Positions 7,628-37,260 are shown, counted from the first letter of the stretch. The stretch: DNA of 37,732 nt from an uncultured bacterium (GCA_964585045.1 CAZPCF010000001.1:1-37732); one strand, 5' to 3'. The notes: generated by a model not told the origin, from the letters alone. Translations and numbers: made by a program.

Positions 7628-7801
7628 TTTCTTGCTGAGAAGCATTGAGCTCTAAATCGTCAGGTGCAATGGGCCTGTCCTGGTGAGTTGTACCCGTTCT
7701 CTTAGCGCAGGTAGCCGGTCGTGGGCTTCTTCTGCCTGACGAAAGGGGTATTTCGGACCTCGTCTCATCTAAGGGAGCCGTCGTGAGGGGGGGATTTCTG
7801 T

Positions 7802-7830
7802 TTGACCGATTAGAAGAGGCATGCTATATT
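7802..7830 (+). promoter_or_regulatory. Putative sigma-70-type promoter for the BamD-like gene
   Basis: TTGACC (7802-7807), a 17-nt spacer, then TATATT (7825-7830). It lies 41 nt upstream of ATG 7872 at the end of a 244-nt ORF-free spacer. Confidence 0.4.
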
Positions 7831-7871
7831 GCATCTTCAAATTTTCCTAACCTGAAGGTTGTAAACGACTT

Positions 7872-16116: not shown

Positions 16117-19100
16117 TTGCAGAAGGCTGATTATGTGTTACCTTTTCTTAAGATTTTAGAAATCAAGTTAGAGCCGAGGCAAATGAGAGCAGACCACAGA
16201 CCACAGACTACAGTCCGAGGACTATCTGCAGGCCATTTTTTGAGGGCTATTTCTCTCTCCACGGCCATTCTTTTTCTTTGCTCCGAAATCCTTACTTTCC
16301 CAGCCCAATCATTTGCTTATCAGTCTACAGACGGAAGATCGCAGACCGCAGGCCAGAATTTTTTGCTACAGTCTCCGGTCTCCGGTCTCCAGGTTGCTTT
16401 TTTCATTCCTCCCGAACTAGGCACGATAAGTGAAGCTTATCGCGGGGAACGGGGAACGGGGAACGAGGAACGAGAGGGTGCAAGCGTTAGCCGTTCCCCG
16501 TTAGCCGTTCCCCGGCACGACCGTACGGTCGTGCTCATCCAAGACGCTCACGCGGTCCCGGATGCCCAGAGATCTCTCATGAAACTCATCGAGCACTTCC
16601 AGTCAAAATACGGGATCCGTCAGGTTGCGCTGGAAGGAGCGGAAGGAAAGCTCGATCCAGAACTTTTTCGTAATTTTCCGGATAAGGAAAAGCTCGCTAA
16701 AGTTTTTAATAGTTATCTTGATTCAGGGGAACTCTCCGGAGCGGCTGTCGCGAGCGTGCTTTTGCCAACGCAGACAGATTACGTGGGCATTGAGGATTGG
16801 GATCTCTATCAGAAGGGGATCACCTCGTTCCTCAGGGGCCTTGAAAAGCAGGCCGATCTCAAATCTCAAATTTCAAATCTCAAAGAGAAACTGCAGGAGC
16901 TCAAAAAAAAGTATTATGCCCCCAAGGCGCTTGAGTTTGATGAGCATTATGAAAACTGGCGTCAAAAACAGGATGATTTTGCCGGGTTTTTAAACTATCT
17001 CGTTGAGACACTTCGATTTGACAGCAAACGTTATTCTTCGCTTGATGCCGTGATCCAAGGGCTTCGCCATGAAAACATCCCTGACAATTCAGCGCTGAAC
17101 CGGGAGATCAGAGCACTCGCTGCAAAGATCCAGCCTAAACTCGTGAACAAAGAGGTCCAAGCGAAATTCAACGAGCTCAAACAATCCCTGCAAACCGGGA
17201 ATGTTGGCAAAGTTGAATTTGCCCGGGGCCTGAAAGAGCTCTTCCCGGGAGACGATCTTGGGATATCCACGGAGTTGCTGGGGCTGATCGAAAACCATGA
17301 GGAGATCCTCCGGCTGCAGGGAGCTGAGTTTGTCAGTGAATTTGAGAAAGCCATCGCAGAGGCCAAAAGCTCGGTGTTTATTTCCGCGGATGAAAAAGAG
17401 ACGAATGCGCTCAGCGAACAGGTCATTATCCTTGAAAAGCTCACAAAGTTTGAATTGTCGAGGAGCGAGTGGAAAACACTTCAAGGGTACGGCGTACGGG
17501 GTACGGCGTACGGCGAACCCGTGGAAAATCCAATAGCCTCTTTCGTGCCCAGCGCTGATATCCCCTCTCTTCAGGCCAAAATTCTCATCCTGTGTCGGTC
17601 ACCCCTTATTGCCGACTTCTTTTCCTTCTATGCGATCGCTCTTCAACGTGAAGCCGTTTTTGTGAAGCATATTGAAAATTTACTCCGTACTCCGTACGCC
17701 GTACACGGTATGGTTGTTGTGGCCGGAGGCTTTCACACCGAAGGTCTCGCTCAGAAATTCAGGGAGCAAGGGATCTCCTACGTAGTGGTCTCGCCTCGGA
17801 TCAATGAGATCCCCAAAGATAGTCGTTATTTTGATTACATGAAGGGGCAGGTCTCATGGCGTGAGTATTTCAAACCCAAGAGCGGCAGGGTCGATCTCTA
17901 CGATGCGTTTGTCCAGGCAATGACGGAGCGCCTTATCTCACCAAGTACTAAGCACCAAATACCAAGTGCTCAGCACACGGTACAGAGGACATTCCGATCT
18001 AAGATCGATTTGAAAGACTGGAGAGATTCGGTTATTCGACGATTGGCCGCCGAAGGCCGCGTCGCAGAGCATTCGAAGTACACCCGTTATATCGACCAAC
18101 AGCTTGCCGGGCAGTCCGAAGAGTTCCAGGCCCTCAAGGAAAAATGGACGGCCAGACTCGAACAATTCATCGGAAAGCTCCAGCTTCTCGGTAAACAGAA
18201 TCAACTTACCGAAGCCAACATCGCGAGGCTCTTTACCGCGACGGCCAATTTTCCTGCTGCCACGGCCTCCCTTGTACCTGGTGCGAGTGTTCCTGTAAAT
18301 TTCGTTGATGATCAACGAGCGCAACGCGCAACGCGCAACGCGCAACGTGAAGAACAAAGGAAAAAATCGCTGAGCGGTGAGCGTAGTGCGTTGCCCGCGA
18401 AAGAGGTCCCCATTCCCAAAGAAGCCGTGCTTGATGAAACATCGGTCGAGCCCGGCCAAAGCTCAGCATCTGTTCGATCTGAGGTGCGGGTGGGTCAAGC
18501 TGAAGGAGCAATGAAGTTTGATGTCTCAGAAGTCCGTGAATTAGTGCTGAACGGCAAAGCGGTCACTCCCGATCAGTTTCACGCGAAAGTAACAGAAATG
18601 TCTCGAGGGGGCTTCATTTTTAATGCTGTTATCAGGGATCATGTATTGCGTTTGGGTGTCGCTCGCAGCAGCGTTGGGGGGCGGCGGATCTACCACGCCG
18701 AGATCAACGACCCTTCGAATCACGATGACGCCATTCTGGGCTTTGTTCCGGAGCCCGGGCCGTATCAAGAAATATCATTAGTCTATAAACGGTTCCGGTA
18801 TCCGGATCAGGAAGAACGGGAAGAACTCCAGGATCAGATGATTCTTTTTGCGAGAGTGTTTATACAGCAGGGGTTCCCTGGAACCACTTTTCTAGGCCGT
18901 GACACTCTGAATATTTTAGAAGGCATCGAGATGAAACTCAATGTCAAACGAGGAGAAGAAACGTTCGCAAAATTGGCGGCCTTACCGTTGTCGTCTGAGA
19001 AAGCGCGTTCCGGTCTGCTTGCAGAACGGGACGGATCCGTCCCGCTTTCACGGGCGGAGGCTCGGCAAAATGATGCTCAGACTGTTCCGGAGATACCCAC

Positions 19101-22100
19101 TACCGTTAATGCCACGCCACAAAATGCTGAGCGGCAGGCTGAACTTGAAAAATATTTGGCCGGCAAAACCCTCATTCATTCCGTTTTTGAAGGCGGGGGC
19201 GCGAAAGGTGTCGCGTATGTCGGGGCTCTCGAGGAACTTGAAAATAAAAAAATGTGGTTTAAGGAAGTGGCCGGTACCTCGGCGGGGGCGATCACCGCGT
19301 CCCTGATCGCGGCCGGCTACGAATATCCTAAGATCAAAGAGATCGTTTTCAACACAGATTTTAATCAATTCAAAGACAAGAGGTGGGGGATTGTCCCGCC
19401 GTGGCTGAACTTCCTGGTGTTTGGCGGGCTCTATCGCGGTCTGGTGTTCGAGAAATGGATCGCCGGTAAAATGAAAGAGAAACTAGGGTTCGAGCCGACG
19501 CTCAAGGATCTTCCGATCCCGCTTACGGTTATCACAAGCGATATTACCAATAAGAACATGCTCATCCTGAACAGGGAGACAGCGCCGGACCTTAAAGTCG
19601 CGGAAGCCGTGCGCATGTCGATGGGAATCCCGTTCTTTTTCGAAGTTTATAAATGGTTCGGGTTCTATAAAAAGTTCCCGCTTGCCGTGCGCCGCACCGT
19701 GGACGGGGGACTTCTCAGCAATTTCCCGCTTTTTATTTATGACAAAGCGGGCAGTAAAGGAGAGCCGGTGGTGGGGTTCATGCTTCAGGAGATCCCGCAC
19801 AAGAAAAAATCCTCCTGGATTACCAAGCTCCTGGCCCTTCTGAAATATCTCCCGCCGTTCCATATTGCGATCGCTGTGATCGATACCGCCCTTGACGGGC
19901 ACGACAACCGCCACATTGAAGATGATGTTTGGGCCAAAATCGTGAATATCCCGGTTGATGTCGGAACTTTGGATTTTGATCTGACGCTTGCTCAAAAAGA
20001 AGAGCTGGCTGCTCGCGGCAAGGAGGCTACCAAGAAGATCATAGGCCTTGCGATGCGAGGCGAAAAAGGCAAAGTCGATACGCCCGCGGAAAGACAGTTC
20101 GCGATCTTCAGATCGAAGGGGGGCCGCATCTTCTTCAAACCGGCCGGCTTTACCTGTGGTGTCCAGCTTGATCTCGTGGATTTTTATCTCGACGGCACTG
20201 GAGAGATCCAGTCGCATATCAAATTTCATCCCGAAAAAAGGATCCTCATCCAACCGAAGAATGTCTGGGAGACAAATCTCAAGAATTTGAGATCTCCTGA
20301 GGGTAAATGGATCGATGCTTCATTGGTCGAGGCTCTTGAGCCGATAACGAAAAACACGGTTTTTAATTTTGATACCCGTTTAAACAGGGATTTTATCCTC
20401 TTTGACCCCAGGACACGGCAGGAGATCGAGGTGATCGCCGTTGGGCCTGGCATCTCGCCGGCAGACAAGGACCAATTTGTTCTTAGCGTGGCATTCCCTC
20501 CGAGTGCGGAGATCATAAGATATAAAAATGATGTCAGGGTTGTGAGACGGGTTCCCGGCGATAGCCGTCCGGGTGTTGTACGGTCTGAAGTGCGGATGAG
20601 TCCGGCTGAACTCGGGGAGGAGTTTAAGAAAAACTTCCCGTTCGACCACGAGCTTATGCTGGCGATGTTCGGTGAAATGGTCGTAGAAGACGCTTTGCTT
20701 AAGGCCTTTTTTGATAAGTTGATCGCATCCGAACGACACCCCGTGTCAGAAGAACGGGCGCGGTACTTGGCATCACTTTTGCGGATCGACCAAGGGTGGG
20801 ACGAAGAACGTACCCTGACCTATCGCGTCAGACGAGGAAAAAAGACCGCCAGCGAAAGCATTCCTTATTCCGGGCTCCAGCAGGATTTTCTAGATTGGGC
20901 TGTGAAAATGAGGATTTCCCGGAGCGAATTCCCGCTTGCTTATGGCTTCTATGTTGAAGGGATCGAGGCGGAAAAGGAAAAGCAGGGGCCCAAAACGGTT
21001 TTTAAAGTAATGGCTGGGAACAAACTGGGGGATGCTATTTTCAAGAAAGTCGTTGAACGCCGGAAAGGACGGCCGAAACAACCTTTGACCTTCTATAAAG
21101 GAGACGTCGCGTCCGATGGCGATCTTCGCTGGCTGAAGACCTTAAAAACCACCAAAGATGTTCCTGCTGTTTTAAGCTCCTCCGGGATCGGCCTCAAGGA
21201 CCTCAGGCTTGGGTTTCATGACCCTGAGTTCCTCATGCAGGAAGATACTTATGACATCTTTCTTTTTACCACGGACCCTGTTTTTATCAATGAGGCCGCC
21301 AGTGTCGTCGAGAGCCGTCTTCCAACGACCACACCTGTCGGATACGCCCAGGTCCAGGTGCTGGATGGGGTTCCCACGGTCAGTGCTTTTCAGCCGCGCT
21401 TCTACCTGCCGCACTCGGTGGATCCCGCCCTGAAAGCGTATGTTGAAGGAAGCATGAAAGCGTTCGGCTTGCTGATCGAGGCCAATATCAAAGATATTCT
21501 GCGATCCAGGAAGCCTGTGACCAAGATCCGCTTTCTTACCCCAGGTTATTTCTTAAACGGACTTAAGGCGCAGGAAAGCACGATCCAGCATTATTATTTC
21601 ACGATACCAAAGTCCCTCGGGTATTCCCTCAAGGCCTTGACCGAACCCATCACGGGCGGTTATCAGCACATTAATTTTGTTTTTGAAAAAGAGGTCGCCT
21701 CTGATGTGTCCGCTTCACATGTCCGGCCAATCCGCTCCGAAACACGCAACACCATAACGGATTTAGCTGTGGTCGCGGAAGGCTTGAGTTTTGCCCTGCC
21801 ACATTATTTCGGGTCAAGCCTTATGGTGATCAGGGGCAACGCGGGACTCCTTGAATTGGCCCCAGACAGCAGGGAAAATATTGCAGCGATCGAAAAAGGT
21901 CTAAGAGATCTTACCGCTAAGCTTAAGATCCTCCGAGGCGAAACGATCACCGTTCTTCAGAACAAGGACGGGAAGAACTATGTCTGGCTTTCGAACGAAG
22001 GATTTTCAAGGAAGATCCTTCGGGGCCGGCGGTCTGTGACGCCGGAAGTCTGGCAGCAGCTCAAAAAGCAGCTTGGCCTTGATACGGTCTTTGCGGAATT

Positions 22101-31100: not shown

Positions 31101-34100
31101 AGATACATCATCCGAAGCGCAATTAAAAGCCATGGAGCAGGTCGTGATCAATCACATGGGGAAATTCGATAAGGCCGAGGATATTTTGGCGCTCATGGGC
31201 GCCCTTGTTGGTATCTGGGATCGTCTCTCAAAAATATCCGGTGAGCGTTCCGCGTCCGAAACGCAATTAAAAGCCATGGAGCAGTTCGTGATCAATCACA
31301 TGGGGAAATTCGATAAGGCCGAGGATATCTTGGCGCTCATGGGCGCCCTTGTTGGTATCTGGGATCGTCTCTCAAAAATATCCGGTGCGCTTCCCGCAAA
31401 AAATAGTTTGTCCGAAACGCAATTAAAGAGCATAGAGCAATTCGTGTTCGACAGTATGAAAAAATCTGATAAGCCCGAGGATATTTTGGCGTTCATGAGT
31501 GTTCTTGTTGATGTTTGGGTCCGCTTCTCAAAAATACCCGACGTTTCTCCCAGTATCTATAAAGAAAGGATCGGGTATTTGATCGGAAATATTTTTAAGG
31601 GGGAGAGGCTACTCGATAAGGATACGAATCAGAATGATATCAGCTTGTTTGAAAAGTATGTCGGAGCGGCAACCACCTCGGACATTATAACGCTAAATGA
31701 CATACTGAGGGAATTGGCCGATCGTATGCCGGAAATTGAACCGGGTGGGTTGACGGAAGAGGAATTAAAGCTCACGCGGGCGCTCGCCGACTATGAGCTT
31801 TTGGAAAAAAGAAAAACGATAGGTTCCACGATCGGGCGGAAGATCGATGATTTGAAACGCCTGGGAGAAGAGGCCTCCCGGAAAGCCTCGGAGCCTCCGG
31901 TTTCGGACAATGTCGGGTCTTCCGAGGCAGATTTGCAGTCCGAACCCCCGGATTTTGAGCGCAATGCTCTCGGCATCCCATCGGCCCCTTTGCCGCCATC
32001 AAATGTTTTGGACGGCCGCGATCGACTTGAGGCGGCGGTGGCGATCATGGGACACGGTGGGCCGCTTGATATAGCGGATCAGATACATAATGCAGGTCTT
32101 CTGCAACTTATGGATTATGTCAAGGCCCTGAAAGGGGACGTCGACTTCGAAAAAGAGAAGGCATTAGAACAGGCTCTCTTGCAAAAGGCCCGGCTCTATT
32201 ACTCTTTTGCTTATGCAATGCAAAAATTAAATCGTCCGGAAGAAACCAATGAAGAATTTCTAACTTTGGTCACAGCGGGTTTACGGCAGGAAGAAGCTCC
32301 GGAAGTGCAGCGAATTTTCCGGCGGTTGGTGGAAAACGGCCTAGATCCAAAAGAACGGGAGAAGGCCTTTATTGCATGGACCCGGGAGGTTGATGGTCTT
32401 TTGCAGGGGTTGCGTTCGGAAGTGGAGCGGATCGATCCCGAAAAATTTTCTGCCGGAGAAATTGCCCGCGTTCAAGAGGCTGGAAATATATATAACTATG
32501 GTGATGAATCTGTCGGCCGGTTCGAGGGCATCAAACGAAATTACATCGCCCTAGCAAAAAGATGGCAGTTTAATTTTAAGGCCATGGCTTCTTATCTGGC
32601 GCCGGAAGGAACAGCGGATTTTCAAGAGTTGAATCTGCCTGCTTGGATTTTGCAACGTACGTGGGAAACCAAACAGGAGGCGCACAGGGTTGTTGCGCGG
32701 CCGCCCGTTGGGCGGCTGCCCGGTGTTTTCGTGAACGAAGAGTTGCTGCATCTTGCGATCGAAAGGATCATTTCAAACGGCTTTCGTGCGATCAATGAGC
32801 AAGCATCTTCTTTACCCGGTGGATTTGAAAAGGTGGACATCGATACGGAAGCTATCCGTGGTATCGATGGCCGGGAAAATGTCCAGATCAGGATCTTGAG
32901 CCCCGGTGTTATTCCGGACAGCAAGCTTAAAATAAATGAAGCTCGAGGCATGCAGGAGTTGTTCGTCTTGGATCCAAAGCGTTCGCATTTCAATCATAAC
33001 ATTGCAATGCCATTCGTAGGACAAGCCATCAAAGGCCTCGGGGGGAAGATCTTTGCGGAAAATATCACCACGGGTGGCCAATCATATGCCGTAGTGACAA
33101 TAGAATTGCCGGCCGGTCGCGCGGACCGCCTTGCGAAGGCAGGCGAGTCTCGCTCTGAAGTCCGGGCGGAACTGCGTTCAGGAAACTCTGAGGGCCCGAA
33201 TATTGGGTCGGCGAGCGAGGATCTACGGGTACGAAATTACGAGGAAGTGAAGGTCGCCGAAAGGATAATGTTGCGTTCAGGCGAGAAGGTAAGGACATTT
33301 ACTGTCCGGGGTTCGTTTCATCTTACCGACGACACTACTTTAAACCTTGCTGTCGACGAAGAAAGCGGAAAATTATACGTCATAAGAAAACTTCTGACCG
33401 AAGAAGATGAAGATCATTGCTCATACGTCCCTAAAGTAATGGAAAAGTTGAAGGGCTATGAGGGCGTATACCAAGCCGAATGGATGGTAAAAGCCGACGA
33501 CTCGAACGGGTGGGACGGCAGGGATGCTTCACTGAATGGGGCTATAGTTTATCCTTATATCCCGGGGAAGGACCTCGCCAGTATTTTCGAAGGGTATAAA
33601 AAGCTGCCGCCTGCGGCGTATTTCAGCGAATTGCTGGATATCGTCATCCGGGTGGCCGACATCGGCGCGTACATCGAAGCAAAAGGCATTTACGATGTTT
33701 GGAGTATAAAGCCGGAAAATATCATGATCACCCCCGACGGCAAGCTTGTCCTTATCGACTATACCCGGAAAAAAATAAACCCCCTATCCAGCATAGAATT
33801 CCTCCTTTACGATTCTACGGATGGTATTCACATGAAAGGAATTGATGGCGTATTGCCTACGCTGAAGTTCGTATCGGATCCCGCGCTGAACCGCCAGATC
33901 GTCAGCCGCCTTACTGCCGCACACCGGAAAGTGAAGGCCAATAGTTACGAAAACATAGGTCAGTTCAGCGAAGAGTTAAAAGGAGTAAAGGCTCTCATGG
34001 AAGCAGGGGATAGCCCGGGAAGTGCCACGCCGCAGCCGCAAGGCGATGTCCGTTCCGAGGTGCGTGGGGAAAAAGATTTGCTATGGACGAAACCCGCGCT

Positions 34101-37100
34101 TGATGCCAAACCGGATCCAGTAGCGGTTGTGAACCGTCAATTTAAATGGTGGACCAAACGCACTCCCGCGTGGACAGAAGAAGAAATACTTAAAATCCCG
34201 GAAGTGATAAAGGCGCTTTATGACGCAGGGATCAATTTGCGCGGCGGATCCATTCAAATGGATAAAAGCGAAGAAGGAAAAAAGACCGTGCAAAGCGTAC
34301 TCGGGACGCCGAGGACAGCATCGGCCATTTATACGAAAACGCTGCAACTTTACAAAGATAAAGGAAAATGGCCCGCGGCTTTGCGTGAAGCAGGGATCGA
34401 CCCGGCGATCCTTCCGAATTATCCCGGTGCGATCGAGGAACGGAACATGAAGTTCGCTCAGGAGGAGCAGGCAGGAAAACGCTCTGCCCCGTCTTTGGAT
34501 ACCGAAGAACGGATTCGTCCCGGTTCTAAAAATCGGGCGGAAGTACGGGTAGAAAAATCCAAAGGGAAACAACCATCGCTAGCTAATCTGATTAGGACCG
34601 TTGCCACAGCGCCCATGCGGTATGCAGGGAATTCCATAAAAACGGATTATGGAGCCGTCGCGTTTCAAAAGCTTTACGGAATGCTGAGAGAGGATCCGGA
34701 AGCAGTGTTGAGCGGCATGGCGGGCCTTTCTGCCGCGCTTCTGCGGCAGTTCAGGAATAGCCGGCGGGGGAAGAGCTTGATCTCGTTTTTCCCTGTGTTG
34801 AACGAATCGCAATCATCCCAGCCCCGTTCGGAAGTTCGAGAAAAAAAATATGATGCCGATTGGCTCCGAAACGCGGCTTTTCTTTTCGACAGTACGGATC
34901 CTGAACTCCGGGCGGTTCTGAATGAAGTTTTGGGCGATGATTCCGAGGCGCTGACACCGAGACAGCGCGAGGTTCTCCGCAAGCGGTATTGGGAGGGGAT
35001 GACGATCTCTCAGATCGCGGAAGAAGAAGGAAAAAGCAGGAATGCTATATCCGATGTCGCCTGGAAAGCGATCCTCCGCCTCCGGCATTATCTTGATGGA
35101 AAAGGCTATTTCAAATTGAATTCCTCCGCGGATTTTCAATATCTGTTAATGGGTAAACAAAGTCGCGCGGCGCGTGCTGAGGTGCGCTCCGAACCGTCTG
35201 AGGCAAAGATTCCTGTTGAGACAAAGACGCAGTTGGATAAAGAAGAGGCTCGCCCGGCAGAGGCACAGCCTGTCGCCGAGGTAAAGAAACCCGAAGAGAT
35301 CGTGCCAGTTCAGGAGACGCCGCTTCCTGTATCCCTGCCCATCCTACCGTTGGTAGAAACAGCCAAACCTGTTGATCAGCTGCAAACGGAGAGAGCCGAA
35401 GTGCCTTCTCAAGTTGAGCCTGCCGCCGTTGAAGAAATTGTTCCGGCACCCAAGATTAAGAAAGCAAGATCCCAGAAAGCTTCTGCCAAGGAAAAAGCCG
35501 GTGACCGGATCCTTTCCAAAGAGCTGGCGATCGCCCTGCTCCAGGAACTAGGGATCGCTTTTCCAAGAAATTCTGAGGAAGTCGCGGAGGTTTTTCTACG
35601 GCTTTACGAGGACAATTATATGAGGGCTATTGAGGCGTTAACATGGAGCGATCCCGCCAAGGCGGTCGCCAGGGCAGAACGGTTGATAGAATTGATCGAA
35701 AGCCTAACGGAAAAAACTCCGAATATGCCATCCAGAATTTATAAAAGGTTCGAGGCCCTTATAGCGACTCTCAAATGGTTTCGTGATGCAGCCAAGTTCG
35801 CGGGCTCGATAGAACAGCCGACGCTTATGGACCGTGCGGTGGGTGATGATCCGGACCTTGTGATCGAGCAGGTGACAAACATGATCGAAAAGGTCGAGGA
35901 GGGTAGAGAGAGATTTTCCGCTCCGCCGGTCGGGTTCGACCGGGCCCTCAAGGCCTGGCAGGACAGGTTATTGGGGATCCAGCAGCTGGCGATGAACAGC
36001 AAAGATGAAGTTGATACCGTGCGCTCCGAATCGTTGGATTCAGTAAACGCCGGAAAAGAGGAGGATGCTTTCACGAAGGATCAAAAAAGGGACCTTGTCA
36101 GGGAGGCCCTTGAAGAAATGGGGATCCAGGAAGTCGAGATGAAAAAATTGAATCTGGTGCGGATCTTCGATTTTTGTAACGGGCCGGGGGTCGAAGCCGC
36201 CGAAAAGCTGAACGATTATTTTGACGGACGCGGATTTCCTGGTCTTTCGGATCAGGTGGACGATCTCATTTTGAGAATGAAGGCGGTTATTGCACAGGAG
36301 AACGAAGATGAGGAAGATACCGGGGGGAACGATTATGGTTTTGTCCGCAGTGAAACAAGGTTGCAGCAAGTTTACGCGGGTGTGCTGGGGACGGTGTTGC
36401 GTCAAGATCCGGACGGGAAGAATCTAGTCCGCGAATTTACAGAAGAAGTAAGAGAAGCTGGGGTGGAGATGGTGTCCCAGGGTCTTTGGACTACTTTCAA
36501 CAATATCGTTCTTCCCGAGGCTATGGCGGCGATGACGGTCAGTGATACGAATGTTCAGGTGGCGGGTTACGATGTGCTTGAAAATGTGCTACGCCAGAAG
36601 GACCTGAGCCGCGAGACGTTGGACAGGATCGCCGAGCAGATGTTCAATGACTCCTTGAAAGATCTTGTCGATGCGATCCTGAAGCGGGAGATCGGCGGCA
36701 TGGCACCGGTGGTGTTCTACTCTTCGGAGATGAAGACGCGGCTGATCCATTTTATTGAAACGGTTCAGCAAGGATTCGAGTCGATTGGGGATGTGACAGG
36801 CGAGAATTACAGGATCACCCTTGTTTCTGCGAACAAGGCCGAGCTTAGAATATTGAAAACCGAACTTTCGAAACGCGGGGCGTTGCGCGGCGTGCAATTT
36901 ATCGAAGATAAAGGATTAAACACTGTTGCCAGGGAACTGGCGTCATCTGTCATCCGCCACCCTGTTTTCGGAGTGCGGTTTGGCATTTTCTTTCCCGAGA
37001 GTGGTCTCGGCCAAAATGTAACTTGGCAATGGGTGGTCCGCTCCGAGATTCCCAAGGAATATGCCGTTCTTCTTCTCCCAGCTTTAAGTAGATACTTTGC

Positions 37101-37260
37101 TTCAGTTCCAACATCTCAAATCTCCGCAGCGACATTACGGCAGGCCTTGCCTGATCTGTTTGCCTCGGCCGCATTTCGGGTTGGGCAGGGCATTGCCATT
37201 GTTGCTTCTTTCCTCGAACACATTGCTGCTGCAGAAAAACAGTTCGCGGCTTCCGCATAA
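16117..37260 (+). CDS. Giant modular multidomain protein (7,047 aa) whose segments are delimited by a recurrent R-[S/A]-E-x-R pentapeptide
   Basis: The reading frame runs for 21,144 nt without a stop. TTG 16117 has GAGG 7 nt upstream, and the alternative ATG 16183 has GAGG 3 nt upstream. Many independent domain signatures share the same frame (see the sub-features). Every long antisense ORF across it has an implausible composition. Confidence 0.9.
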   Translation: MQKADYVLPFLKILEIKLEPRQMRADHRPQTTVRGLSAGHFLRAISLSTAILFLCSEILTFPAQSFAYQSTDGRSQTAGQNFLLQSPVSGLQVAFFIPPELGTISEAYRGERGTGNEEREGASVSRSPLAVPRHDRTVVLIQDAHAVPDAQRSLMKLIEHFQSKYGIRQVALEGAEGKLDPELFRNFPDKEKLAKVFNSYLDSGELSGAAVASVLLPTQTDYVGIEDWDLYQKGITSFLRGLEKQADLKSQISNLKEKLQELKKKYYAPKALEFDEHYENWRQKQDDFAGFLNYLVETLRFDSKRYSSLDAVIQGLRHENIPDNSALNREIRALAAKIQPKLVNKEVQAKFNELKQSLQTGNVGKVEFARGLKELFPGDDLGISTELLGLIENHEEILRLQGAEFVSEFEKAIAEAKSSVFISADEKETNALSEQVIILEKLTKFELSRSEWKTLQGYGVRGTAYGEPVENPIASFVPSADIPSLQAKILILCRSPLIADFFSFYAIALQREAVFVKHIENLLRTPYAVHGMVVVAGGFHTEGLAQKFREQGISYVVVSPRINEIPKDSRYFDYMKGQVSWREYFKPKSGRVDLYDAFVQAMTERLISPSTKHQIPSAQHTVQRTFRSKIDLKDWRDSVIRRLAAEGRVAEHSKYTRYIDQQLAGQSEEFQALKEKWTARLEQFIGKLQLLGKQNQLTEANIARLFTATANFPAATASLVPGASVPVNFVDDQRAQRATRNAQREEQRKKSLSGERSALPAKEVPIPKEAVLDETSVEPGQSSASVRSEVRVGQAEGAMKFDVSEVRELVLNGKAVTPDQFHAKVTEMSRGGFIFNAVIRDHVLRLGVARSSVGGRRIYHAEINDPSNHDDAILGFVPEPGPYQEISLVYKRFRYPDQEEREELQDQMILFARVFIQQGFPGTTFLGRDTLNILEGIEMKLNVKRGEETFAKLAALPLSSEKARSGLLAERDGSVPLSRAEARQNDAQTVPEIPTTVNATPQNAERQAELEKYLAGKTLIHSVFEGGGAKGVAYVGALEELENKKMWFKEVAGTSAGAITASLIAAGYEYPKIKEIVFNTDFNQFKDKRWGIVPPWLNFLVFGGLYRGLVFEKWIAGKMKEKLGFEPTLKDLPIPLTVITSDITNKNMLILNRETAPDLKVAEAVRMSMGIPFFFEVYKWFGFYKKFPLAVRRTVDGGLLSNFPLFIYDKAGSKGEPVVGFMLQEIPHKKKSSWITKLLALLKYLPPFHIAIAVIDTALDGHDNRHIEDDVWAKIVNIPVDVGTLDFDLTLAQKEELAARGKEATKKIIGLAMRGEKGKVDTPAERQFAIFRSKGGRIFFKPAGFTCGVQLDLVDFYLDGTGEIQSHIKFHPEKRILIQPKNVWETNLKNLRSPEGKWIDASLVEALEPITKNTVFNFDTRLNRDFILFDPRTRQEIEVIAVGPGISPADKDQFVLSVAFPPSAEIIRYKNDVRVVRRVPGDSRPGVVRSEVRMSPAELGEEFKKNFPFDHELMLAMFGEMVVEDALLKAFFDKLIASERHPVSEERARYLASLLRIDQGWDEERTLTYRVRRGKKTASESIPYSGLQQDFLDWAVKMRISRSEFPLAYGFYVEGIEAEKEKQGPKTVFKVMAGNKLGDAIFKKVVERRKGRPKQPLTFYKGDVASDGDLRWLKTLKTTKDVPAVLSSSGIGLKDLRLGFHDPEFLMQEDTYDIFLFTTDPVFINEAASVVESRLPTTTPVGYAQVQVLDGVPTVSAFQPRFYLPHSVDPALKAYVEGSMKAFGLLIEANIKDILRSRKPVTKIRFLTPGYFLNGLKAQESTIQHYYFTIPKSLGYSLKALTEPITGGYQHINFVFEKEVASDVSASHVRPIRSETRNTITDLAVVAEGLSFALPHYFGSSLMVIRGNAGLLELAPDSRENIAAIEKGLRDLTAKLKILRGETITVLQNKDGKNYVWLSNEGFSRKILRGRRSVTPEVWQQLKKQLGLDTVFAELAATLERIGSKIENPDLSPEDISTILESCTSISSLVHLATDKAKQFVSTRSAPILNESAPPSEARDSFWDKPIQLRPKYVAAGIVGIIAVGVLLGIKLSGITWNELKYMTTTPVEVKRFITDAARVVRVTKVRKVDNEAEYVPMFSYRIKPRSKSLYTDGTRSCAALIIDDPSGGRHFLGHFGTTQSPDSIRALITDNFQELGGLQVYVLEGNQPGMDRTIFAPGAYATIKNIYATLKDLGLLSQTKYIPKNTNPHWGSRIFVQDGELFLPNHDADYPPPDDSDGSTKWILESEPRSELRQGEFSELLSQIQEKTVAGEERLKIERVEQWSRAVREVAEANFYDKTAEPFISHWEWILGRPEIWEVLAASDSLDPLLDGIESGHSPKAMRMPNLIKSAIFFSVLGLSTSALFGMEESSTLVRGFAVFALVQILLVYAVASATKVRRVRTQRQEQWFLETIRPKKIQIENRFHELAKFSWVDDSPEEPILRPGLGTVSEARSELREEKALAAIHKFAHAAKEQVKEFAKKSIAAKQRVEWELRRHGKIENKGWFAQALGDLNERGRVFDQHVDEFVADRDDVLSVVNGDLLASVVEPFSYEYQAMKKELGLILKFAMGSEKDGLEWTSLEHHLNDLSLVLLEMMDTFETIAMLPELDLRDGIVDMTLNQSDPASQVNEKKYSEQLKPVFQKSSHVYEEVLKLKENGVLFEIFPFLRQIAGFQKRDGSIIIDHLLNLIRCLEWIEKGDRAAFNEGTLGWVVEAQEFQLYQKLFSEASAGEGRELLYLVALLHNIGEISRVEDWKDRESFQVRQALFKFDHSEAGGAYLIRPIIRRKLGFSTQVMKDRMKMVEWLVFHQFALGNLFFGELSPSHLLAKMVAMPPGVDQAKLFKMLTILSFADLRNTYRGAYITKFKTNFYAGMMNFETLWLILQRLDEYRLQRFITGPDGSPDPQKQIALDEIFYGKLPASLQNHLKHVLRYGVHRFYFGAFLFRSIKVETLLKLLVTISAFFKAPGVELRDVAFTTPSAEAETVADQLDAFFDPLSFQEIGSFFGMDVHKIQGVLAERGLPVEIREATEELVIDTKALLRFSTRPDSKNRAEMRTNEIDPKTLPERERVRLVLEYIKSKGQAEAARGDLPGDLLQEIFEKYDIKLKSTKKGKSISYDFVDASAKPKSKPRIQSSPKIKRDGSALVTANAEIDRQKALLEIQNLKRAAGLAMQQAQKNHDPDQYAVAVAKHDEIAARLSVFGAQMQSKINFHVQQARRAKELRAEEEARRLISLSKEERQALEDQARQEVLKVEGERIAKEKVLAEERFRLEQEKKKLEDEQIAREEAFRKQREEEARQLLEAERKEREAKVAKAKFEAHKSGVIKLIEEADVRLTAFDAKDFTGIKSIREMKEISSAIKAVEEFRAKYGKDGDLEGYYGIFGSSLATKEADYTQWRQNNEKLLAIITRNPAVLLDRIRSAEKKRSRNEPLEPVETRKAVEASFKVIMEAAMADIGSRDTFTEQDAATMGLLKKIRAALDVNQSTSRSEVRQKKGLGKEPPDVLGVREADIIPLDLNADQKTTFETFWDYENGWEGVARIEGGDPAWLDSEAGAELYKRISQKTRVLAAYILFHFPDGDKLVLREMADANGRPFFQTDERKLAFILNEMAKNAIVHGHKLNLQLPVFLQWKFDLKERVFRIRVVNAIEKDDSLIQKIGPEKLRDILKLSGEGKAEEVIYHMTGGNIPARKDVGNATVSELEIRLIIRSEARGEGTEGAGKLDISTESREREGYTWVNGDYVQYGKKGGIWISGDTGKGKSFLTIKMIESGLPFKVVSCGASYFKSHEEGGKRIILGLRGEMSANTLYSRLLGYKKVTLTEEMVVPLRFIVTLDDTYEDSYIRKELKGEGSAEKADIRIINLTDLDVSRDWEEAVRRIREVVEGTSRKVKSVKFVDGSENASSQPRVETAQATAGVLPRGISLQIPRSEVRSQNQIQSEIDRVTELKNGARMRARQFLQYNRELIQWFLALKDAQGKITEESKEEQTLILEKIRDYADVLREIAGNIRPDVGEGIVGEQTRYQKLNDYAVKPSLGIRQEEVTIALTAESRKLKEDMAGLQKQFLEAHRAKDPGRLRSLNEQAVALYKARLKAQLLQASSYLQEQKIDTTALLTILTAIRIGYLKISHEYGWRIRRALGEAAIQKIQVVGREGDVAQVYDYENFKMATVPDGKGEQNPVTIFQDVWVRKDLEDGSFTYQPEKRPFVFKDLKTAVRRSFHILLNQEVDFAQVYDRINDLDYIVDLLRTDGDEIPEYYLEDIRESVDFIMNARRGSLTRGHVDEKGNAAANVRGGMFELEARHTARATEMFGAAKKELETRLIVLAGKKAGISSQAQYLIHRYRRDETSRAMRELGSLLEEQNFQAAYQLLRVLYKTHYLHKASEESQYASLQWHVIDLGVSLKRLALKKDRPSASVQGNILRYVRENIRRIQIMAGANLSDPPSPLRNEGRIHSASRAEMRLKQPLRAVVFDIGGVIFDLDFKKMAQALINAGVRIKTVEEIIALSVSSDVYKALERDEISPEAFYAALCGALGIGILSYEEFVRIWTDIFTPKPETVELIKQARETGAKIFFLTDANRLHTQYLKKHYPDVFALADHVFPSYELGLRKGDGSRVFQVVSEKLEQEYGIKHGEYVFFDDRNDNVAAANSVGFPAMVFESAQAAREELAKSEEVTPDEIQSDLTKIDLAGKGSSRITSIDEAGLLVTGKRQEVSEPWTNRRARLTYILREGLKPYRDVLPALTDSLKDGARHGGKYISFSMVSPRFGYAGTSTDYLNYGPSSGKNGYSLYNVAFILDPAYVRRHQEDFHAVGEAFAANGTMHKAYIDSKGEVLGGFTYRSGIAEQITRPAPYPDEVVVDRNIPPEAFGAIIAHDAYAKEIRDIIVTECPQMSIRIFNPKGEILFDIKSDTTTTLRATSEGKRSEVRSEPAPEGTPTAGFNEGTRQQLLKSIAHFIQVIDTSSEAQLKAMEQVVINHMGKFDKAEDILALMGALVGIWDRLSKISGERSASETQLKAMEQFVINHMGKFDKAEDILALMGALVGIWDRLSKISGALPAKNSLSETQLKSIEQFVFDSMKKSDKPEDILAFMSVLVDVWVRFSKIPDVSPSIYKERIGYLIGNIFKGERLLDKDTNQNDISLFEKYVGAATTSDIITLNDILRELADRMPEIEPGGLTEEELKLTRALADYELLEKRKTIGSTIGRKIDDLKRLGEEASRKASEPPVSDNVGSSEADLQSEPPDFERNALGIPSAPLPPSNVLDGRDRLEAAVAIMGHGGPLDIADQIHNAGLLQLMDYVKALKGDVDFEKEKALEQALLQKARLYYSFAYAMQKLNRPEETNEEFLTLVTAGLRQEEAPEVQRIFRRLVENGLDPKEREKAFIAWTREVDGLLQGLRSEVERIDPEKFSAGEIARVQEAGNIYNYGDESVGRFEGIKRNYIALAKRWQFNFKAMASYLAPEGTADFQELNLPAWILQRTWETKQEAHRVVARPPVGRLPGVFVNEELLHLAIERIISNGFRAINEQASSLPGGFEKVDIDTEAIRGIDGRENVQIRILSPGVIPDSKLKINEARGMQELFVLDPKRSHFNHNIAMPFVGQAIKGLGGKIFAENITTGGQSYAVVTIELPAGRADRLAKAGESRSEVRAELRSGNSEGPNIGSASEDLRVRNYEEVKVAERIMLRSGEKVRTFTVRGSFHLTDDTTLNLAVDEESGKLYVIRKLLTEEDEDHCSYVPKVMEKLKGYEGVYQAEWMVKADDSNGWDGRDASLNGAIVYPYIPGKDLASIFEGYKKLPPAAYFSELLDIVIRVADIGAYIEAKGIYDVWSIKPENIMITPDGKLVLIDYTRKKINPLSSIEFLLYDSTDGIHMKGIDGVLPTLKFVSDPALNRQIVSRLTAAHRKVKANSYENIGQFSEELKGVKALMEAGDSPGSATPQPQGDVRSEVRGEKDLLWTKPALDAKPDPVAVVNRQFKWWTKRTPAWTEEEILKIPEVIKALYDAGINLRGGSIQMDKSEEGKKTVQSVLGTPRTASAIYTKTLQLYKDKGKWPAALREAGIDPAILPNYPGAIEERNMKFAQEEQAGKRSAPSLDTEERIRPGSKNRAEVRVEKSKGKQPSLANLIRTVATAPMRYAGNSIKTDYGAVAFQKLYGMLREDPEAVLSGMAGLSAALLRQFRNSRRGKSLISFFPVLNESQSSQPRSEVREKKYDADWLRNAAFLFDSTDPELRAVLNEVLGDDSEALTPRQREVLRKRYWEGMTISQIAEEEGKSRNAISDVAWKAILRLRHYLDGKGYFKLNSSADFQYLLMGKQSRAARAEVRSEPSEAKIPVETKTQLDKEEARPAEAQPVAEVKKPEEIVPVQETPLPVSLPILPLVETAKPVDQLQTERAEVPSQVEPAAVEEIVPAPKIKKARSQKASAKEKAGDRILSKELAIALLQELGIAFPRNSEEVAEVFLRLYEDNYMRAIEALTWSDPAKAVARAERLIELIESLTEKTPNMPSRIYKRFEALIATLKWFRDAAKFAGSIEQPTLMDRAVGDDPDLVIEQVTNMIEKVEEGRERFSAPPVGFDRALKAWQDRLLGIQQLAMNSKDEVDTVRSESLDSVNAGKEEDAFTKDQKRDLVREALEEMGIQEVEMKKLNLVRIFDFCNGPGVEAAEKLNDYFDGRGFPGLSDQVDDLILRMKAVIAQENEDEEDTGGNDYGFVRSETRLQQVYAGVLGTVLRQDPDGKNLVREFTEEVREAGVEMVSQGLWTTFNNIVLPEAMAAMTVSDTNVQVAGYDVLENVLRQKDLSRETLDRIAEQMFNDSLKDLVDAILKREIGGMAPVVFYSSEMKTRLIHFIETVQQGFESIGDVTGENYRITLVSANKAELRILKTELSKRGALRGVQFIEDKGLNTVARELASSVIRHPVFGVRFGIFFPESGLGQNVTWQWVVRSEIPKEYAVLLLPALSRYFASVPTSQISAATLRQALPDLFASAAFRVGQGIAIVASFLEHIAAAEKQFAASA
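16191..16391 (+). repeat. In-frame heptad arrays: AGACCAC AGACCAC AGACTAC (16191-16211) and GTCTCCG GTCTCCG GTCTCCA (16371-16391)
   Basis: These are direct 7-nt tandem units. The AGACC and GGTCT cores of the two arrays are complementary. Additional CAGACNG-like units lie at 16321-16354. Confidence 0.6.
16237..16317 (+). other. N-terminal signal peptide or signal anchor of the giant protein
   Basis: A basic region (MRADHRPQTTVRGLSAGH) is followed by the hydrophobic stretch FLRAISLSTAILFLCSEILTFPAQSFA, which ends in an AxA-like site (QSFA/YQ). Confidence 0.55.
16444..16513 (+). repeat. In-frame heptad inverted repeat: GGGGAAC x3 plus GAGGAAC (16444-16471) facing CGTTAGC CGTTCCC CGTTAGC CGTTCCC (16485-16513)
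   Basis: Three units are perfect. The arms are imperfectly complementary with a 13-nt loop. It belongs to the same unit family as the intergenic element at 14436-14506. It is translated as RGERGTGNEEREGASVSRSPLAVPR. Confidence 0.7.
16528..17810 (+). other. Possible Tiki/TraB/ChaN-superfamily domain, interrupted by a heptad-flanked insert
   Basis: VVLIQDAHAVPDAQRSLMKLIEH...VALEGAEG resembles the N-terminal GxxH...E motif region of this superfamily. MVVVAGGFHTEGLAQKF resembles its C-terminal GxxH motif. The call rests on pattern recognition only. Confidence 0.35.
17487..17705 (+). repeat. In-frame heptad arrays GTACGGC GTACGGG GTACGGC GTACGGC (17487-17514) and the complementary CCGTACT CCGTACG CCGTACA (17685-17705), about 170 nt apart
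   Basis: Both are direct 7-nt tandem units, and the second array is the reverse complement of the first. They are translated as GYGVRGTAYGE and LRTPYAVH. Confidence 0.65.
17940..17981 (+). repeat. In-frame degenerate heptad array (ACCAAGT ACTAAGC ACCAAAT ACCAAGT GCTCAGC ACACGGT)
   Basis: A 7-nt periodicity is visible, and the array contains the palindromic cores AGTACT and GTGCTCAGCAC. Confidence 0.45.
18313..18398 (+). repeat. In-frame heptad inverted repeat: CAACGAG plus four perfect CGCAACG units (18320-18347) facing CGCTGAG CGGTGAG CGTAGTG CGTTGCC (18368-18395)
   Basis: Four units are perfect. The partner arm is complementary at about 5-6 of 7 positions per unit. It belongs to the same unit family as the intergenic elements at 12407-12469 and 37267-37379. 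It is translated as QRAQRATRNAQRE...SLSGERSALP. Confidence 0.7.
19165..19985 (+). other. Patatin-like phospholipase domain
   Basis: The oxyanion motif is FEGGGAKGVAY, the nucleophile elbow is GTSAG (19273-19287), and the catalytic Asp motif is VDGGLLSNFP (Asp codon at 19702-19704). Confidence 0.85.
22333..22386 (+). other. Internal transmembrane helix
   Basis: The hydrophobic stretch YVAAGIVGIIAVGVLLGI is flanked by the basic residues RPK and KLSG. Confidence 0.6.
22579..22650 (+). other. Cys/His motif resembling the CheD-type deamidase active-site region (weak)
   Basis: TRSCAALIIDDPSGGRHFLGHFGT compares with the CheD-like pattern GSC-(hydrophobic)-D..GG.aH. The Cys-to-second-His spacing of 17 residues is compatible. 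Confidence 0.25.
23281..23421 (+). other. Pair of internal transmembrane helices (helical hairpin)
   Basis: IKSAIFFSVLGLSTSALFGM and VRGFAVFALVQILLVYAVASA are separated by a short MEESSTL loop and followed by the basic stretch KVRRVRTQRQ. Confidence 0.6.
24440..24812 (+). other. HD-superfamily-like domain with a degenerate HD dyad (HN)
   Basis: LYLVALLHNIGEI occupies the place of the ..LLHDIGK motif. It is followed by FDHSEAGGAYL and later LSFADLRNTY. The pattern is reminiscent of GlnD/HD-type phosphohydrolase domains. Confidence 0.45.
25880..26210 (+). other. Charged coiled-coil segment (E/R/K-rich)
   Basis: RRAKELRAEEEARRLISLSKEERQALEDQARQEVLKVEGERIAKEKVLAEERFRLEQEKKKLEDEQIAREEAFRKQREEEARQLLEAERKEREAKVAKAKFEA. 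Confidence 0.7.
26935..27357 (+). other. GHKL (HATPase_c)-like module resembling anti-sigma-factor serine kinases (RsbW/SpoIIAB type)
   Basis: The N-box-like stretch is LAFILNEMAKNAIVHGH (27043-27093). It is followed by FRIRVVNAIEKDD and the terminal strand ELEIRLII. The segment is only about 220 aa between two delimiter motifs. Confidence 0.45.
27373..28014 (+). other. P-loop module resembling the HPr kinase/phosphorylase C-terminal domain
   Basis: GGIWISGDTGKGKSFLTIKMIESG (P-loop at 27496-27519) compares with the HprK pattern GVLI.G.SG.GKSE.AL.LI..G. The segment is noticeably AT-rich. Confidence 0.4.
29632..30230 (+). other. HAD-superfamily hydrolase domain (subfamily IA-like)
   Basis: Motif I is AVVFDIGGVIFD (Asp codon at 29644-29646), motif II is IFFLTDAN, and motif IV is VFFDDRNDNVAAANSVGF. 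Confidence 0.7.
31111..31545 (+). repeat. Three tandem copies of a ~45-50-aa unit (periods of 144 and 156 nt). Copies 1 and 2 are nearly identical at the DNA level.
   Basis: The copies read SEAQLKAMEQVVINHMGKFDKAEDILALMGALVGIWDRLSKISG, SETQLKAMEQFVINHMGKFDKAEDILALMGALVGIWDRLSKISG and SETQLKSIEQFVFDSMKKSDKPEDILAFMSVLVDVWVRFSKIP. They start at 31111, 31255 and 31411. Confidence 0.9.
32700..33110 (+). other. GHKL (histidine-kinase-like ATPase) domain
   Basis: The N-box-like stretch is EELLHLAIERIISNGFRAINE. The G-box-like stretch is NIAMPFVGQAIKGLGGKIFAENITTGGQSYAVVTIELP. Confidence 0.6.
33287..33990 (+). other. Protein-kinase-like domain with a non-canonical catalytic loop
   Basis: KLYVIRKL is VAIK-like. 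YDVWSIKPENIMITPDGKLVLIDYT sits in place of HRDxKPxN...DFG, so the HRD Asp position is Ser and DFG is DYT. Confidence 0.55.
34951..35094 (+). other. Sigma-70 region 4-type helix-turn-helix
   Basis: LTPRQREVLRKRYWEGMTISQIAEEEGKSRNAISDVAWKAILRLRHYL matches the classic region-4 pattern (L..rqreVl.Lry.eG.s..EIAe..g.s...V......A...LR..L). Confidence 0.75.

Follow-up and report, generated by a model that had tools for sequence, protein, structure and literature searches.

A giant mosaic gene from an Omnitrophota bacterium with a recurrent R-S-E-x-R pentapeptide at module boundaries, possibly encoding a polyprotein

A single gene of 7,047 codons occupies nucleotides 16117 to 37260, on the plus strand, of a 37,732-nucleotide stretch of DNA from an uncultured bacterium (GCA_964585045.1, CAZPCF010000001.1:1-37732; the whole stretch is referred to here as the window). 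Its predicted product is punctuated by 18 copies of a pentapeptide, R-[S/A]-E-x-R, which coincide with the boundaries of modules that are gained, lost, or replaced as units among related proteins. We put the chances at about even that this product is a polyprotein, or "cargo array," which is exported and cleaved at R-S-E-x-R. As proposed, the chain would carry at its head a Sec-type signal peptide and a conserved domain of ∼700 residues (module M1) with invariant residues like those of TIKI and erythromycin esterase (Ere) enzymes, at its tail a conserved C-terminal domain (CTD) of ∼300 residues ending in [A/S/M]-Ala, and between the two a hypervariable string of protein-sized modules, 17 in the window protein. 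Every boundary would be marked by R-[S/A]-E-x-R within a short, disorder-like linker, and the pentapeptide would act as an endoproteolytic processing site at which the giant product is cut into individual proteins. The cargo of the window protein would comprise a patatin phospholipase, a YihX-like HAD phosphatase, and a sigma-70 region 4 helix-turn-helix (HTH), together with P-loop, kinase-like, and GHKL-like modules and many that were not recognized.

The uninterrupted giant open reading frame (ORF) of the original prediction was borne out by ORF listing and translation, which gave one frame running from the first possible start codon, a TTG at 16117, through 7,047 codons with no internal stop to a single terminal stop ending at 37260. 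Stop codons make up ∼4.5% of random codons at ∼51% GC, from which the probability of 7,047 stop-free codons is estimated at ∼e^-320, and the ORF cannot be explained by chance. GC content is even along its length (0.49–0.53).

Within the encoded protein, R-[S/A]-E-[V/L/M/A/T/I/S]-R was found 18 times, as compared to 0.19 occurrences expected from shuffles, and the motif is absent from every other plus-frame ORF of the window. These sites divide the chain into 19 modules of 97 to 786 residues, 17 of which lie between the head, M1, and the tail, M19. Motifs 1 to 18, all on the plus strand and given with their first residue in ORF numbering, are RSEVR at 787 (18475–18489; at the end of a disordered linker with an AlphaFold2 [AF2] pLDDT of ∼30), RAEAR at 979 (19051–19065), RSEVR at 1489 (20581–20595), RSETR at 1873 (21733–21747), RSELR at 2290 (22984–22998) and again at 2494 (23596–23610), RAEMR at 3092 (25390–25404), RSEVR at 3528 (26698–26712; the start of M9), RSEAR at 3748 (27358–27372), RSEVR at 3967 (28015–28029; the start of M11), RAEMR at 4495 (29599–29613), RSEVR at 4959 (30991–31005), at 5679 (33151–33165; directly followed by AELR), and at 5979 (34051–34065), RAEVR at 6140 (34534–34548), RSEVR at 6237 (34825–34839), RAEVR at 6353 (35173–35187), and RSETR at 6744 (36346–36360; the start of the CTD). 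The enrichment extends to relatives of the window protein: 152 family proteins, the window protein included, contain 827 motifs versus 19.9 expected from composition, and control patterns with K for R, D for E, or a scrambled order gave 11 to 41 matches each in the same proteins. Motif density reaches 1.61 per 1,000 residues in the giant ORFs, ∼180-fold above the 0.009 of the remaining ORFs at these loci, and in 151 family proteins (472 thousand residues) no other pentamer of any kind is as frequent as RSELR and RSEVR. The core of the motif is strict, with Ala in place of Ser at ∼13% of sites. Its flanks are alike in composition only, being small or polar upstream and acidic or polar downstream, and order-promoting residues are depleted within ∼10 to 25 residues of the motifs (p ∼1e-23). 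Distances between motifs in the family have a median of 314 residues, the size of an ordinary protein (interquartile range 178–533; 10th percentile 59). Some motifs lie only a few residues apart, as in RSEVRAELR of the window protein (residues 5679–5687; nucleotides 33151–33177) and in a relative (L002) in which 11 residues separate RSEAR from RSEVR; such closely spaced motifs could be scars of module deletion or could delimit short spacer peptides. Nothing relevant emerged when the full-text literature was searched for motif strings such as RSEVR and RSELR or for polyproteins in conjunction with Omnitrophota.

Placement of the motif at module boundaries is evident from alignments between family members. 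Among close relatives, 67.5% of high-scoring segment pairs (HSPs) start within 15 residues of a motif, the random expectation being 8%, and the median distance is 4 residues; among 132 divergent family members, 20% of HSP starts fall within 5 residues of a motif (random expectation, 1.8%), and just 9 of the 238 HSPs extend across one. Homologues that BLAST aligned from the first residue of a window module nearly all start at a motif and stop just before the next. M3, for instance, matches residues 858–1356 of one relative (L006), whose motifs stand at 858 and 1360, and M11 is 75% identical to residues 2662–3170 of another (P0008), with motifs at 2662 and 3175. M9 homologues in L007 and P0008 begin at motifs of their own, and M4, M17, and M19 behave alike. 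Profile scans of the whole protein and of each segment separately were run against Pfam, NCBIfam, PADLOC, and PDB sequences, and no motif of the window protein falls within a Pfam envelope.

The same alignments reveal cassette-like variation. P0008, a 6,089-residue protein recovered from an independent assembly in Logan, is a collinear full-length orthologue in which seven module regions occur in the same order, the M9 and M11 homologues at 49 to 75% identity. The two proteins differ by insertion, deletion, and replacement of whole modules, and the window modules M2 to M4 occupy precisely the interval from the motif closing M1 to the motif opening M5. Orthologues differ by gain, loss, or replacement of entire modules. 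Across the family, only ∼1% of protein pairs have a body module in common, and M2, M6–M8, M10, and M14–M16 have no homologue among the sequences collected. In two relatives, a module opens with a transmembrane (TM) or signal-like stretch immediately after the motif (L007 residue 937, RSELRGAWKKAAAIAVIAGA; L037 residue 2641, RSEIRKMWVKVAVAVAAGGL) and gives the impression that the motif furnishes a new signal anchor with its positive n-region. The idea that modules regularly open with their own TM anchor was rejected, 23 of 194 TM-like segments lying 4 to 30 residues after a motif, which is not a clear enrichment.

Exact exchange at the motif is also what would be expected if R-S-E-x-R were the protein footprint of cassette exchange at the DNA level, comparable to integron attC sites or shufflons and devoid of function in the protein; a small HTH_17 (excisionase-like) gene that separates a tandem pair of giants, described below, points the same way. 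The 15 nucleotides of the motif are, however, not conserved as DNA. Its codons vary synonymously, with both TCN and AGY used for Ser, both CGN and AGR for Arg, and third positions free, although the encoded residues stay invariant, and what is under selection is therefore the peptide rather than the DNA. Furthermore, the 30 nucleotides on either side of the motifs display neither flanking conservation nor inverted repeats, and no recombinase gene is adjacent in the window. We regard a footprint of DNA exchange as very improbable, and a DNA repeat or recombination site as such was rejected on the same synonymous variation. Internal translation starts at the fourth codon of the motif were likewise rejected, since the codons found there include GTA, GTT, GTC, GCT, ACA, and TTA and downstream Met is not enriched.

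Homologues being absent for M2, M6–M8, M10, and M14–M16, a chimeric or misassembled contig, or several genes read as one, was also considered. Such an artifact is difficult to reconcile with 7,047 stop-free codons of uniform GC, with a collinear orthologue from an independent assembly, with more than 100 independent contigs of the same head-array-tail architecture, and with the position of the two family domains at exactly the two ends of this ORF, and we assign it next to no probability.

An exhaustive HMMER search with an M1 profile returned 8,406 cluster representatives at E ≤ 1e-3 and 3,860 at E ≤ 1e-30. In the best 150 of the 8,406, M1 always stands at the N terminus, in proteins of up to 7,984 residues, and family members with a named source all come from Omnitrophota; the M1 family is very large and has so far been seen only in that phylum. 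Eighty metagenome loci share the head-array-tail architecture. Their neighboring genes vary and are mostly of the housekeeping type, with no dedicated protease or secretion gene nearby and no neighbor conserved across the 80 loci. More than 40 different Pfam families were found as cargo across relatives, among them AceK, PPDK/PEP-utilizers, inositol monophosphatase, DnaJ, HPr, cytidine deaminase, GT2/GT1, and MarC, as well as SNF2 helicase, RNA polymerase alpha-CTD, cNMP-binding, ABC1 kinase, M48 peptidase, LRR, TPR, and HEAT; most cargo modules match no family. Most family members have no internal TM-like segment.

Public annotation names these giants after one incidental domain (methyltransferase, HEAT repeat, 4-alpha-glucanotransferase, WD40), by which the family is hidden. 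Two members, MBI3312831.1 (7,984 residues) and MBI3313007.1 (6,409 residues), have accessions 176 apart and probably derive from one metagenome-assembled genome (MAG); genomes may thus hold several paralogous giants. On contig Ga0247727_10000271 (L112 and L117), two family genes lie in tandem on one strand. The first ends in ...ATGRSA at L117:9407, and the ∼380-nucleotide gap to the second contains a 69-residue HTH_17 (excisionase/AlpA-like) gene, which may hint at involvement of a mobile element.

The head of the window protein begins with a putative Sec-type signal peptide or signal anchor (MRADHRPQTTVRGLSAGHFLRAISLSTAILFLCSEILTFPAQSFA; 16183–16317, plus strand), which has a net-positive n-region, an h-region, and an A-x-A-like c-region; hydropathy supports the hydrophobic stretch in which a signal anchor was originally predicted. 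By the same heuristics, 116 of 131 complete family N termini have a net-positive n-region (median +3) and a strong h-region, and aligned close relatives possess an A-x-A-like site after the h-region. M1 as a whole (16183–18474, plus strand) is the family-defining domain, a candidate TIKI/Ere-like hydrolase. It is conserved in all relatives at 28 to 56% identity; in the GTDB relatives with a giant ORF after uvrC it makes up the first ∼700 to 770 residues of the protein, at 28 to 47% identity, and the sequence beyond differs. H145, Q151, E173, R511, and G538-F539-H540 (ORF numbering) are invariant in all 161 M1 members compared, and D143 is present in 158. Their order, D-x-H, a Glu at exactly +28, an Arg, and then G-G-F-H, is reminiscent of the TIKI superfamily, which also includes TraB/PrgY, ChaN, and Ere, where [D/E]-x-H on strand 1 is followed by a Glu at +28 on the next strand, an Arg, and G-x-x-H. 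The reference 2His/2Glu arrangement is E3900, H3902, E3930, and H4030 in RRSP and includes H85 and E113 in Bcr135 (PMC6254334); the spacing in M1 matches that of active TIKI/Ere enzymes, with Asp in place of the first Glu.

An AF2 model of M1 built from a 22-sequence alignment (pLDDT 73.8, above 90 in the core) contains strands with flanking helices, in an alpha/beta core split by a helical insertion of ∼290 residues. The 22 sequences were needed: an earlier model from eight sequences (pLDDT 57) gave meaningless Foldseek matches to helical bundles. Ere enzymes similarly combine an alpha/beta core with a large helical insertion, and Tiki and PrgY are extracytoplasmic, as is predicted for M1. 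The insertion of M1 is much larger than in the superfamily, and the Asp also sets it apart. Among the matches listed by Foldseek for the model, the highest probabilities belong to the Ere-family structures 3b55 and 2rad (0.30–0.33), with 6xcs lower at 0.14; these are the only noteworthy matches of the alpha/beta class, none of them significant; PF01963, PF04187, and PF05139 gave no match to 17 M1 sequences at E ≤ 10. The Tiki/ChaN-like domain of the original prediction thus found no Pfam support, and its invariant residues do fit the 2His/2Glu arrangement. The idea is plausible but unproven, since the residues match and neither profile nor Foldseek searches give a significant match.

The tail, M19, is a conserved CTD of 304 residues (6744–7047; 36346–37257, plus strand) that was recognized by BLAST and profiles and ends in ...EKQFAASA-COOH. 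BLAST found its homologues as the terminal module in seven relatives, and iterative local profiles merged differing C-terminal clusters into one divergent family. The distance from last motif to C terminus is tight, with a median of 296 residues. Among 131 family members longer than 1,200 residues, 116 end in AA, SA, or MA, as compared to a background dipeptide frequency of 1.8%; the remaining 15 are probably truncated at contig ends. The same [A/S/M]-Ala end was found in 16 of 19 complete genes from independent loci. The tails conform to the consensus hydrophobic-x-x-E-[Y/A]-x-A-x-x-x-[V/I]-x-x-[A/S/M]-A-COOH. Pfam, NCBIfam, PADLOC, and PDB-sequence searches matched the CTD to no known family, and a CTD profile search of a large database returned eight fragments only. 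One apparent stand-alone CTD gene of 311 residues was rejected as such, since it forms the last part of an open frame that extends, with nine motifs, over more than 2,300 residues. At the extreme C terminus, the nearly invariant [A/S/M]-Ala-COOH follows an amphipathic segment (37234–37257 in the window) and recalls ssrA-like (..LAA), tail-specific-protease, or PDZ recognition signals; it could be a signal for degradation, docking, or export. A reading of the tail as a pseudo-substrate copy of the motif was rejected, as only 16 of 116 tails contain the motif.

If the chain is cut, M1 would be the prime candidate for the protease, because it is the only enzyme-like part present in all members and the TIKI superfamily, to which it may belong, includes site-specific endopeptidases; a trans-acting Arg-specific protease is the alternative. 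The lack of a dedicated partner gene nearby favors processing in cis or by a general protease. Modules would be gained, lost, and replaced as cassettes at the motifs, which would leave close relatives with different cargo. Cytoplasmic-type modules (sigma region 4, HPr, DnaJ, RNA polymerase alpha-CTD, and kinases) lie behind an export signal in a phylum described as host-dependent or episymbiotic (Nielsen & Lui 2026, bioRxiv 10.64898/2026.06.07.730766), which suggests an effector or accessory role for the cargo beyond the cytoplasm of the producer and possibly outside that cell; this is speculative. Taken jointly, Omnitrophota would possess polyprotein genes by the thousands, whose products would be exported by Sec, cut at R-S-E-x-R by M1 as a self-contained TIKI-like protease into up to ∼20 exchangeable effector or accessory proteins serving a host-dependent lifestyle, and finished by an Ala-ended tail for export, docking, or turnover. 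We advance this combination tentatively, with the balance leaning somewhat against it.

Alternatively, the product could remain uncut, as a giant secreted or membrane-tethered multi-enzyme scaffold in which R-S-E-x-R, for example, serves as a hinge, is modified, or docks a partner protein, chaperone, or translocon. The motif is clearly functional and lies in linkers, which would suit such roles as well, scission being deduced from the pattern. Head and tail domains could cooperate only on an intact chain, for example as anchor and cap, and the TM segments make a single protease for all sites awkward; moreover, proteins of this kind are regarded in the 2026 catalogue as single polypeptides associated with the membrane (10.64898/2026.06.07.730766). 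The modules, however, are unrelated to one another, protein-sized, and freely exchangeable, which argues for independent work rather than an ordered assembly line, and modification of the Ser fits poorly with the sites that carry Ala instead. A strict pentapeptide with unconserved flanks in a disorder-like setting at every boundary also has the signature of a processing site, of a kind typical in viral polyproteins and MARTX linkers. We consider an uncut scaffold a serious possibility, albeit a rather unlikely one.

Several points weigh against export and cleavage as proposed. Cleavage itself we infer from the sequence, and for the signal peptide and topology we relied on hydropathy heuristics rather than on a trained predictor. 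Three TM-like segments (residues 2074–2092 and a hairpin at ∼2392–2432) would leave M7–M19 cytoplasmic and M1 periplasmic, so that a periplasmic M1 would be unable to reach 12 of the 18 sites. M1 has no significant profile match in Pfam, NCBIfam, PADLOC, or PDB sequences, and its Foldseek matches to Ere-family structures have E values of 0.18 to 1.8 with TM scores of at most 0.25; fold class and protease activity of M1 are putative as a result. We know of no protease specificity with a five-residue site and Arg at both ends. Finally, cytoplasmic-type domains behind a Sec signal are a paradox, and the effector reading derives from lifestyle only.

Some of these points would be accommodated if cutting of the polyprotein fell instead to a protease that is encoded elsewhere and acts in trans, such as a clan-CD or serine protease specific for Arg, with M1 being esterase/lipase-like, binding haem or another cofactor in the manner of ChaN, or serving export or attachment. 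No significant match ties M1 to proteases; the TIKI superfamily includes non-proteases, among them esterases and haem-binding proteins (PMC6254334); and a cytoplasmic location of M7–M19, as the TM segments suggest, would call for a cytoplasmic protease. Against this, no protease gene is conserved beside the family loci, protease modules are rare within the arrays (one Peptidase_M48 among 14 proteins), and M1 is the sole enzyme-like element in every member, its putative catalytic residues invariant but for D143 in three of 161. We hold a trans-acting protease to be unlikely.

Giant mosaic proteins are a signature of Omnitrophota, and the key question, posed in a 2023 study (West-Roberts et al. 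2023, bioRxiv 10.1101/2023.11.21.568195), is whether they work as intact chains or undergo cleavage, and at which points. The "multi-enzyme" giants (class 1) of this phylum combine many unrelated Pfam domains with signal peptides or TM helices (10.64898/2026.06.07.730766; 10.1101/2023.11.21.568195). Cleavage was suspected in 2023, with C39 and S8 peptidases proposed, but the cleavage points were unknown, and the authors could for that reason not split the giants computationally (10.1101/2023.11.21.568195). The words "motif," "linker," and "cleav" do not occur in the 2026 catalogue (10.64898/2026.06.07.730766), and neither it nor the 2023 paper contains the junction motif, M1, or the CTD. Mosaic giants of Omnitrophota are therefore already catalogued, contrary to the implication of the original prediction that the window protein stands outside known kinds; the motif and its two bracketing domains are not previously described.

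The window protein shares with the catalogued giants its phylum, a chain tiled by unrelated domains none of which dominates, a signal peptide and TM segments (by hydropathy heuristics), mostly unmatched and almost entirely unique sequence, and suspected cleavage; typical domains of the catalogued giants include HAD, histidine-kinase-like ATPase, methyltransferases, and glycosyltransferases. It differs in length, its 7,047 residues falling below the at least 10,000 at which the catalogues start, a threshold that is operational rather than biological, and in that M1, CTD, and linker motif are described for its own family only, the peptidases of 2023 being C39/S8 and not TIKI-like. All features that define this family are present in the window protein, namely M1 with D-x-H, E(+28), R, and GGFH, 18 R-[S/A/T]-E-x-R separators, and a CTD ending in [A/S/M]-Ala.

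A junction signal selected at the protein level turns the question of cut or intact chains into a direct test. The motif also provides a principled way of splitting giants into units of ∼300 residues for structure prediction and annotation, and the analysis defines M1 (8,406 cluster representatives) and the CTD, a cassette-like diversification of cargo, and, possibly, a novel cleavage specificity of a TIKI-like fold. Should the chain indeed be cut, no larger use of polyprotein processing would be known from cellular organisms; should the joint reading hold, Omnitrophota would package and diversify their secretome in a novel manner, with an "operon as one protein," and R-S-E-x-R would be the missing cleavage code of Omnitrophota giants.

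In how it would work, the window protein appears closest to the MARTX toxins, of which it is not a member. Both have a giant secreted chain (export being predicted here), conserved ends, and a variable array of unrelated domains in shuffled repertoires; those of MARTX are effectors and are shuffled between strains. MARTX effectors are released by cleavage in unstructured interdomain linkers; here the variable array is observed, and cleavage in linkers would be the counterpart. The MARTX effectors also include a TIKI-family endopeptidase, RRSP (PMC6254334). Unlike MARTX, the whole protein contains no RTX glycine-rich repeats and no Peptidase C80 domain in Pfam and NCBIfam scans, and no type I secretion system (T1SS) genes lie nearby, the neighbors being uvrC, murJ, holA, lptE, a bamD-like gene, and metH. 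MARTX toxins are cut after Leu and carry a C-terminal T1SS signal, whereas the window protein has a putative R-S-E-x-R site and an N-terminal Sec-type signal, and cargo in its family includes many housekeeping-type enzyme families.

Viral polyproteins (picornavirus and potyvirus, with 3C/NIa-type proteases) likewise yield many mature proteins from one ORF through a short recognition sequence at each junction and a protease in cis. The window protein has such a short conserved sequence at each junction, and M1 is a candidate for a protease in cis. The gingipain/HagA polyproteins of Porphyromonas gingivalis are cut at Arg or Lys. Unlike either group, the Omnitrophota giants would have up to ∼20 junctions, with hypervariable module order and content, in a cellular chromosomal gene, their cleavage being the proposed element. 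In polymorphic toxins (VENN in CdiA, PxxxxDPxGL in Rhs), a short peptide motif also borders conserved and exchangeable segments. CdiA and Rhs proteins have one variable C-terminal toxin tip and a cognate immunity gene; the window protein instead has many variable internal modules and a conserved CTD, and metH rather than an immunity-like gene lies downstream.

The original prediction described the ORF as a mosaic of unrelated modules that normally occur as separate proteins, and this description holds, with Patatin, HAD, and Sigma70_r4 on one chain. It also excluded an adhesin, an RTX or immunoglobulin-like array, and a nonribosomal peptide or polyketide synthetase, in agreement with the absence of any Pfam match to tandem immunoglobulin-like, cadherin, or RTX repeats or to C-A-T or KS-AT-ACP modules. 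What it overlooked were the R-S-E-x-R punctuation and the conserved N- and C-terminal domains; its statement that internal repeats are almost absent is correct at the level of domains, where a single triplicated unit is found, and misses the 18-fold pentapeptide.

Three of its individual domain calls passed profile searches, and most of the others did not. The patatin-like phospholipase domain in M3 (residues 1023–1205; 19183–19731, plus strand) matches PF01734 with E = 6.6e-32 and 111.7 bits against a cut-off of 27.7, and exhibits GGGAKG at 1026–1031, G-T-S1055-A-G, and D1196-G-G; among solved structures, the effector phospholipases ExoU, VipD, and PlpD, all secreted, are closest to it. In M12, a YihX-like HAD-family phosphatase (4505–4689; 29629–30183, plus strand) matches PF00702 (E = 2e-11), NCBIfam NF006991, glucose-1-phosphatase (1.9e-33), and PDB entries 2b0c and 8pno (2.5e-28). 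The sigma-70 region 4 HTH lies in M17 (6278–6324; 34948–35088, plus strand), with E = 1e-11 for PF04545 and 4e-11 for TIGR02937. Hydropathy agreed with a predicted TM helix in M5 (2074–2092; 22336–22392, plus strand; Kyte-Doolittle 2.43) and with one half of a predicted TM hairpin in M6 (∼2392–2432; 23290–23412, plus strand), flagging 2414–2432 at 2.21; the first helix of this pair, at ∼2392–2410, was read from the sequence only. The triplicated unit of ∼48 to 52 residues in M13 (∼5001–5150; 31117–31566, plus strand) is visible on reading the sequence. The first GHKL module was marginal (HATPase_c_2, E = 0.022), and the kinase-like module gave a weak match to PADLOC PD-T4-6 (E ∼0.005), with SIKPEN and DYT motifs visible. 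CheD-like, HD-like, and second GHKL domains received no profile support, nor did the HprK-like domain, in which only a generic P-loop remains.

Translation of the giant gene probably starts at the ATG at 16183–16185 (codon 23), giving a product of 7,025 residues, because the protein alignments of all relatives begin at this Met (M-N-x-K-T-S...); a Shine-Dalgarno-like GAGG precedes it at 16176–16179 on the plus strand. Scans for a promoter and a terminator at the ends of the gene were uninformative. Upstream lie genes for a BamD/YfiO-like TPR protein, LptE, HolA, MurJ, and UvrC, all ordinary Gram-negative housekeeping functions, and MetH is encoded downstream, so that the giant gene is situated between uvrC and metH. 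The host is an Omnitrophota bacterium as placed by the neighboring UvrC, which is 77 to 87% identical to that of Candidatus Omnitrophota MAGs, its best GTDB matches. An independent ENA contig (L001) is 100% identical over the start of the gene, and ∼20 GTDB genomes have an ORF of more than 2,500 residues at the same uvrC-adjacent position. In six other GTDB loci (L010, L011, L013, L034, L049, and L059; UvrC identity 66–83%), metH (1,154–1,201 residues) directly follows uvrC with no giant between them. It follows that the giant gene is an accessory element, inserted between two genes of the housekeeping type.

Elsewhere in the window, GC content steps from 0.40–0.45 over positions 1–8000 to 0.50–0.55 over 8000–37732. 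The low-GC part holds a cluster of membrane-protein, sulfatase, radical-SAM, GT2, and B12-radical-SAM genes, which may be a horizontally acquired island for modification of the envelope or polysaccharides. The BamD-like protein encoded at 7872–10871 (plus strand) has 999 residues, with an N-terminal YfiO/BamD-like TPR part (Pfam, 1.5e-16) and a highly charged coiled-coil tail of ∼650 residues, and its gene has an AT skew of +0.23. Unusually long for BamD, it is kept at ∼1,000 to 1,090 residues and at the same position in nearly all Omnitrophota relatives. The minus strand of 16117–37260 contains six antisense ORFs of 163 to 351 residues (e.g., 28567–29622, 351 residues), most likely spurious shadows of the long coding region.

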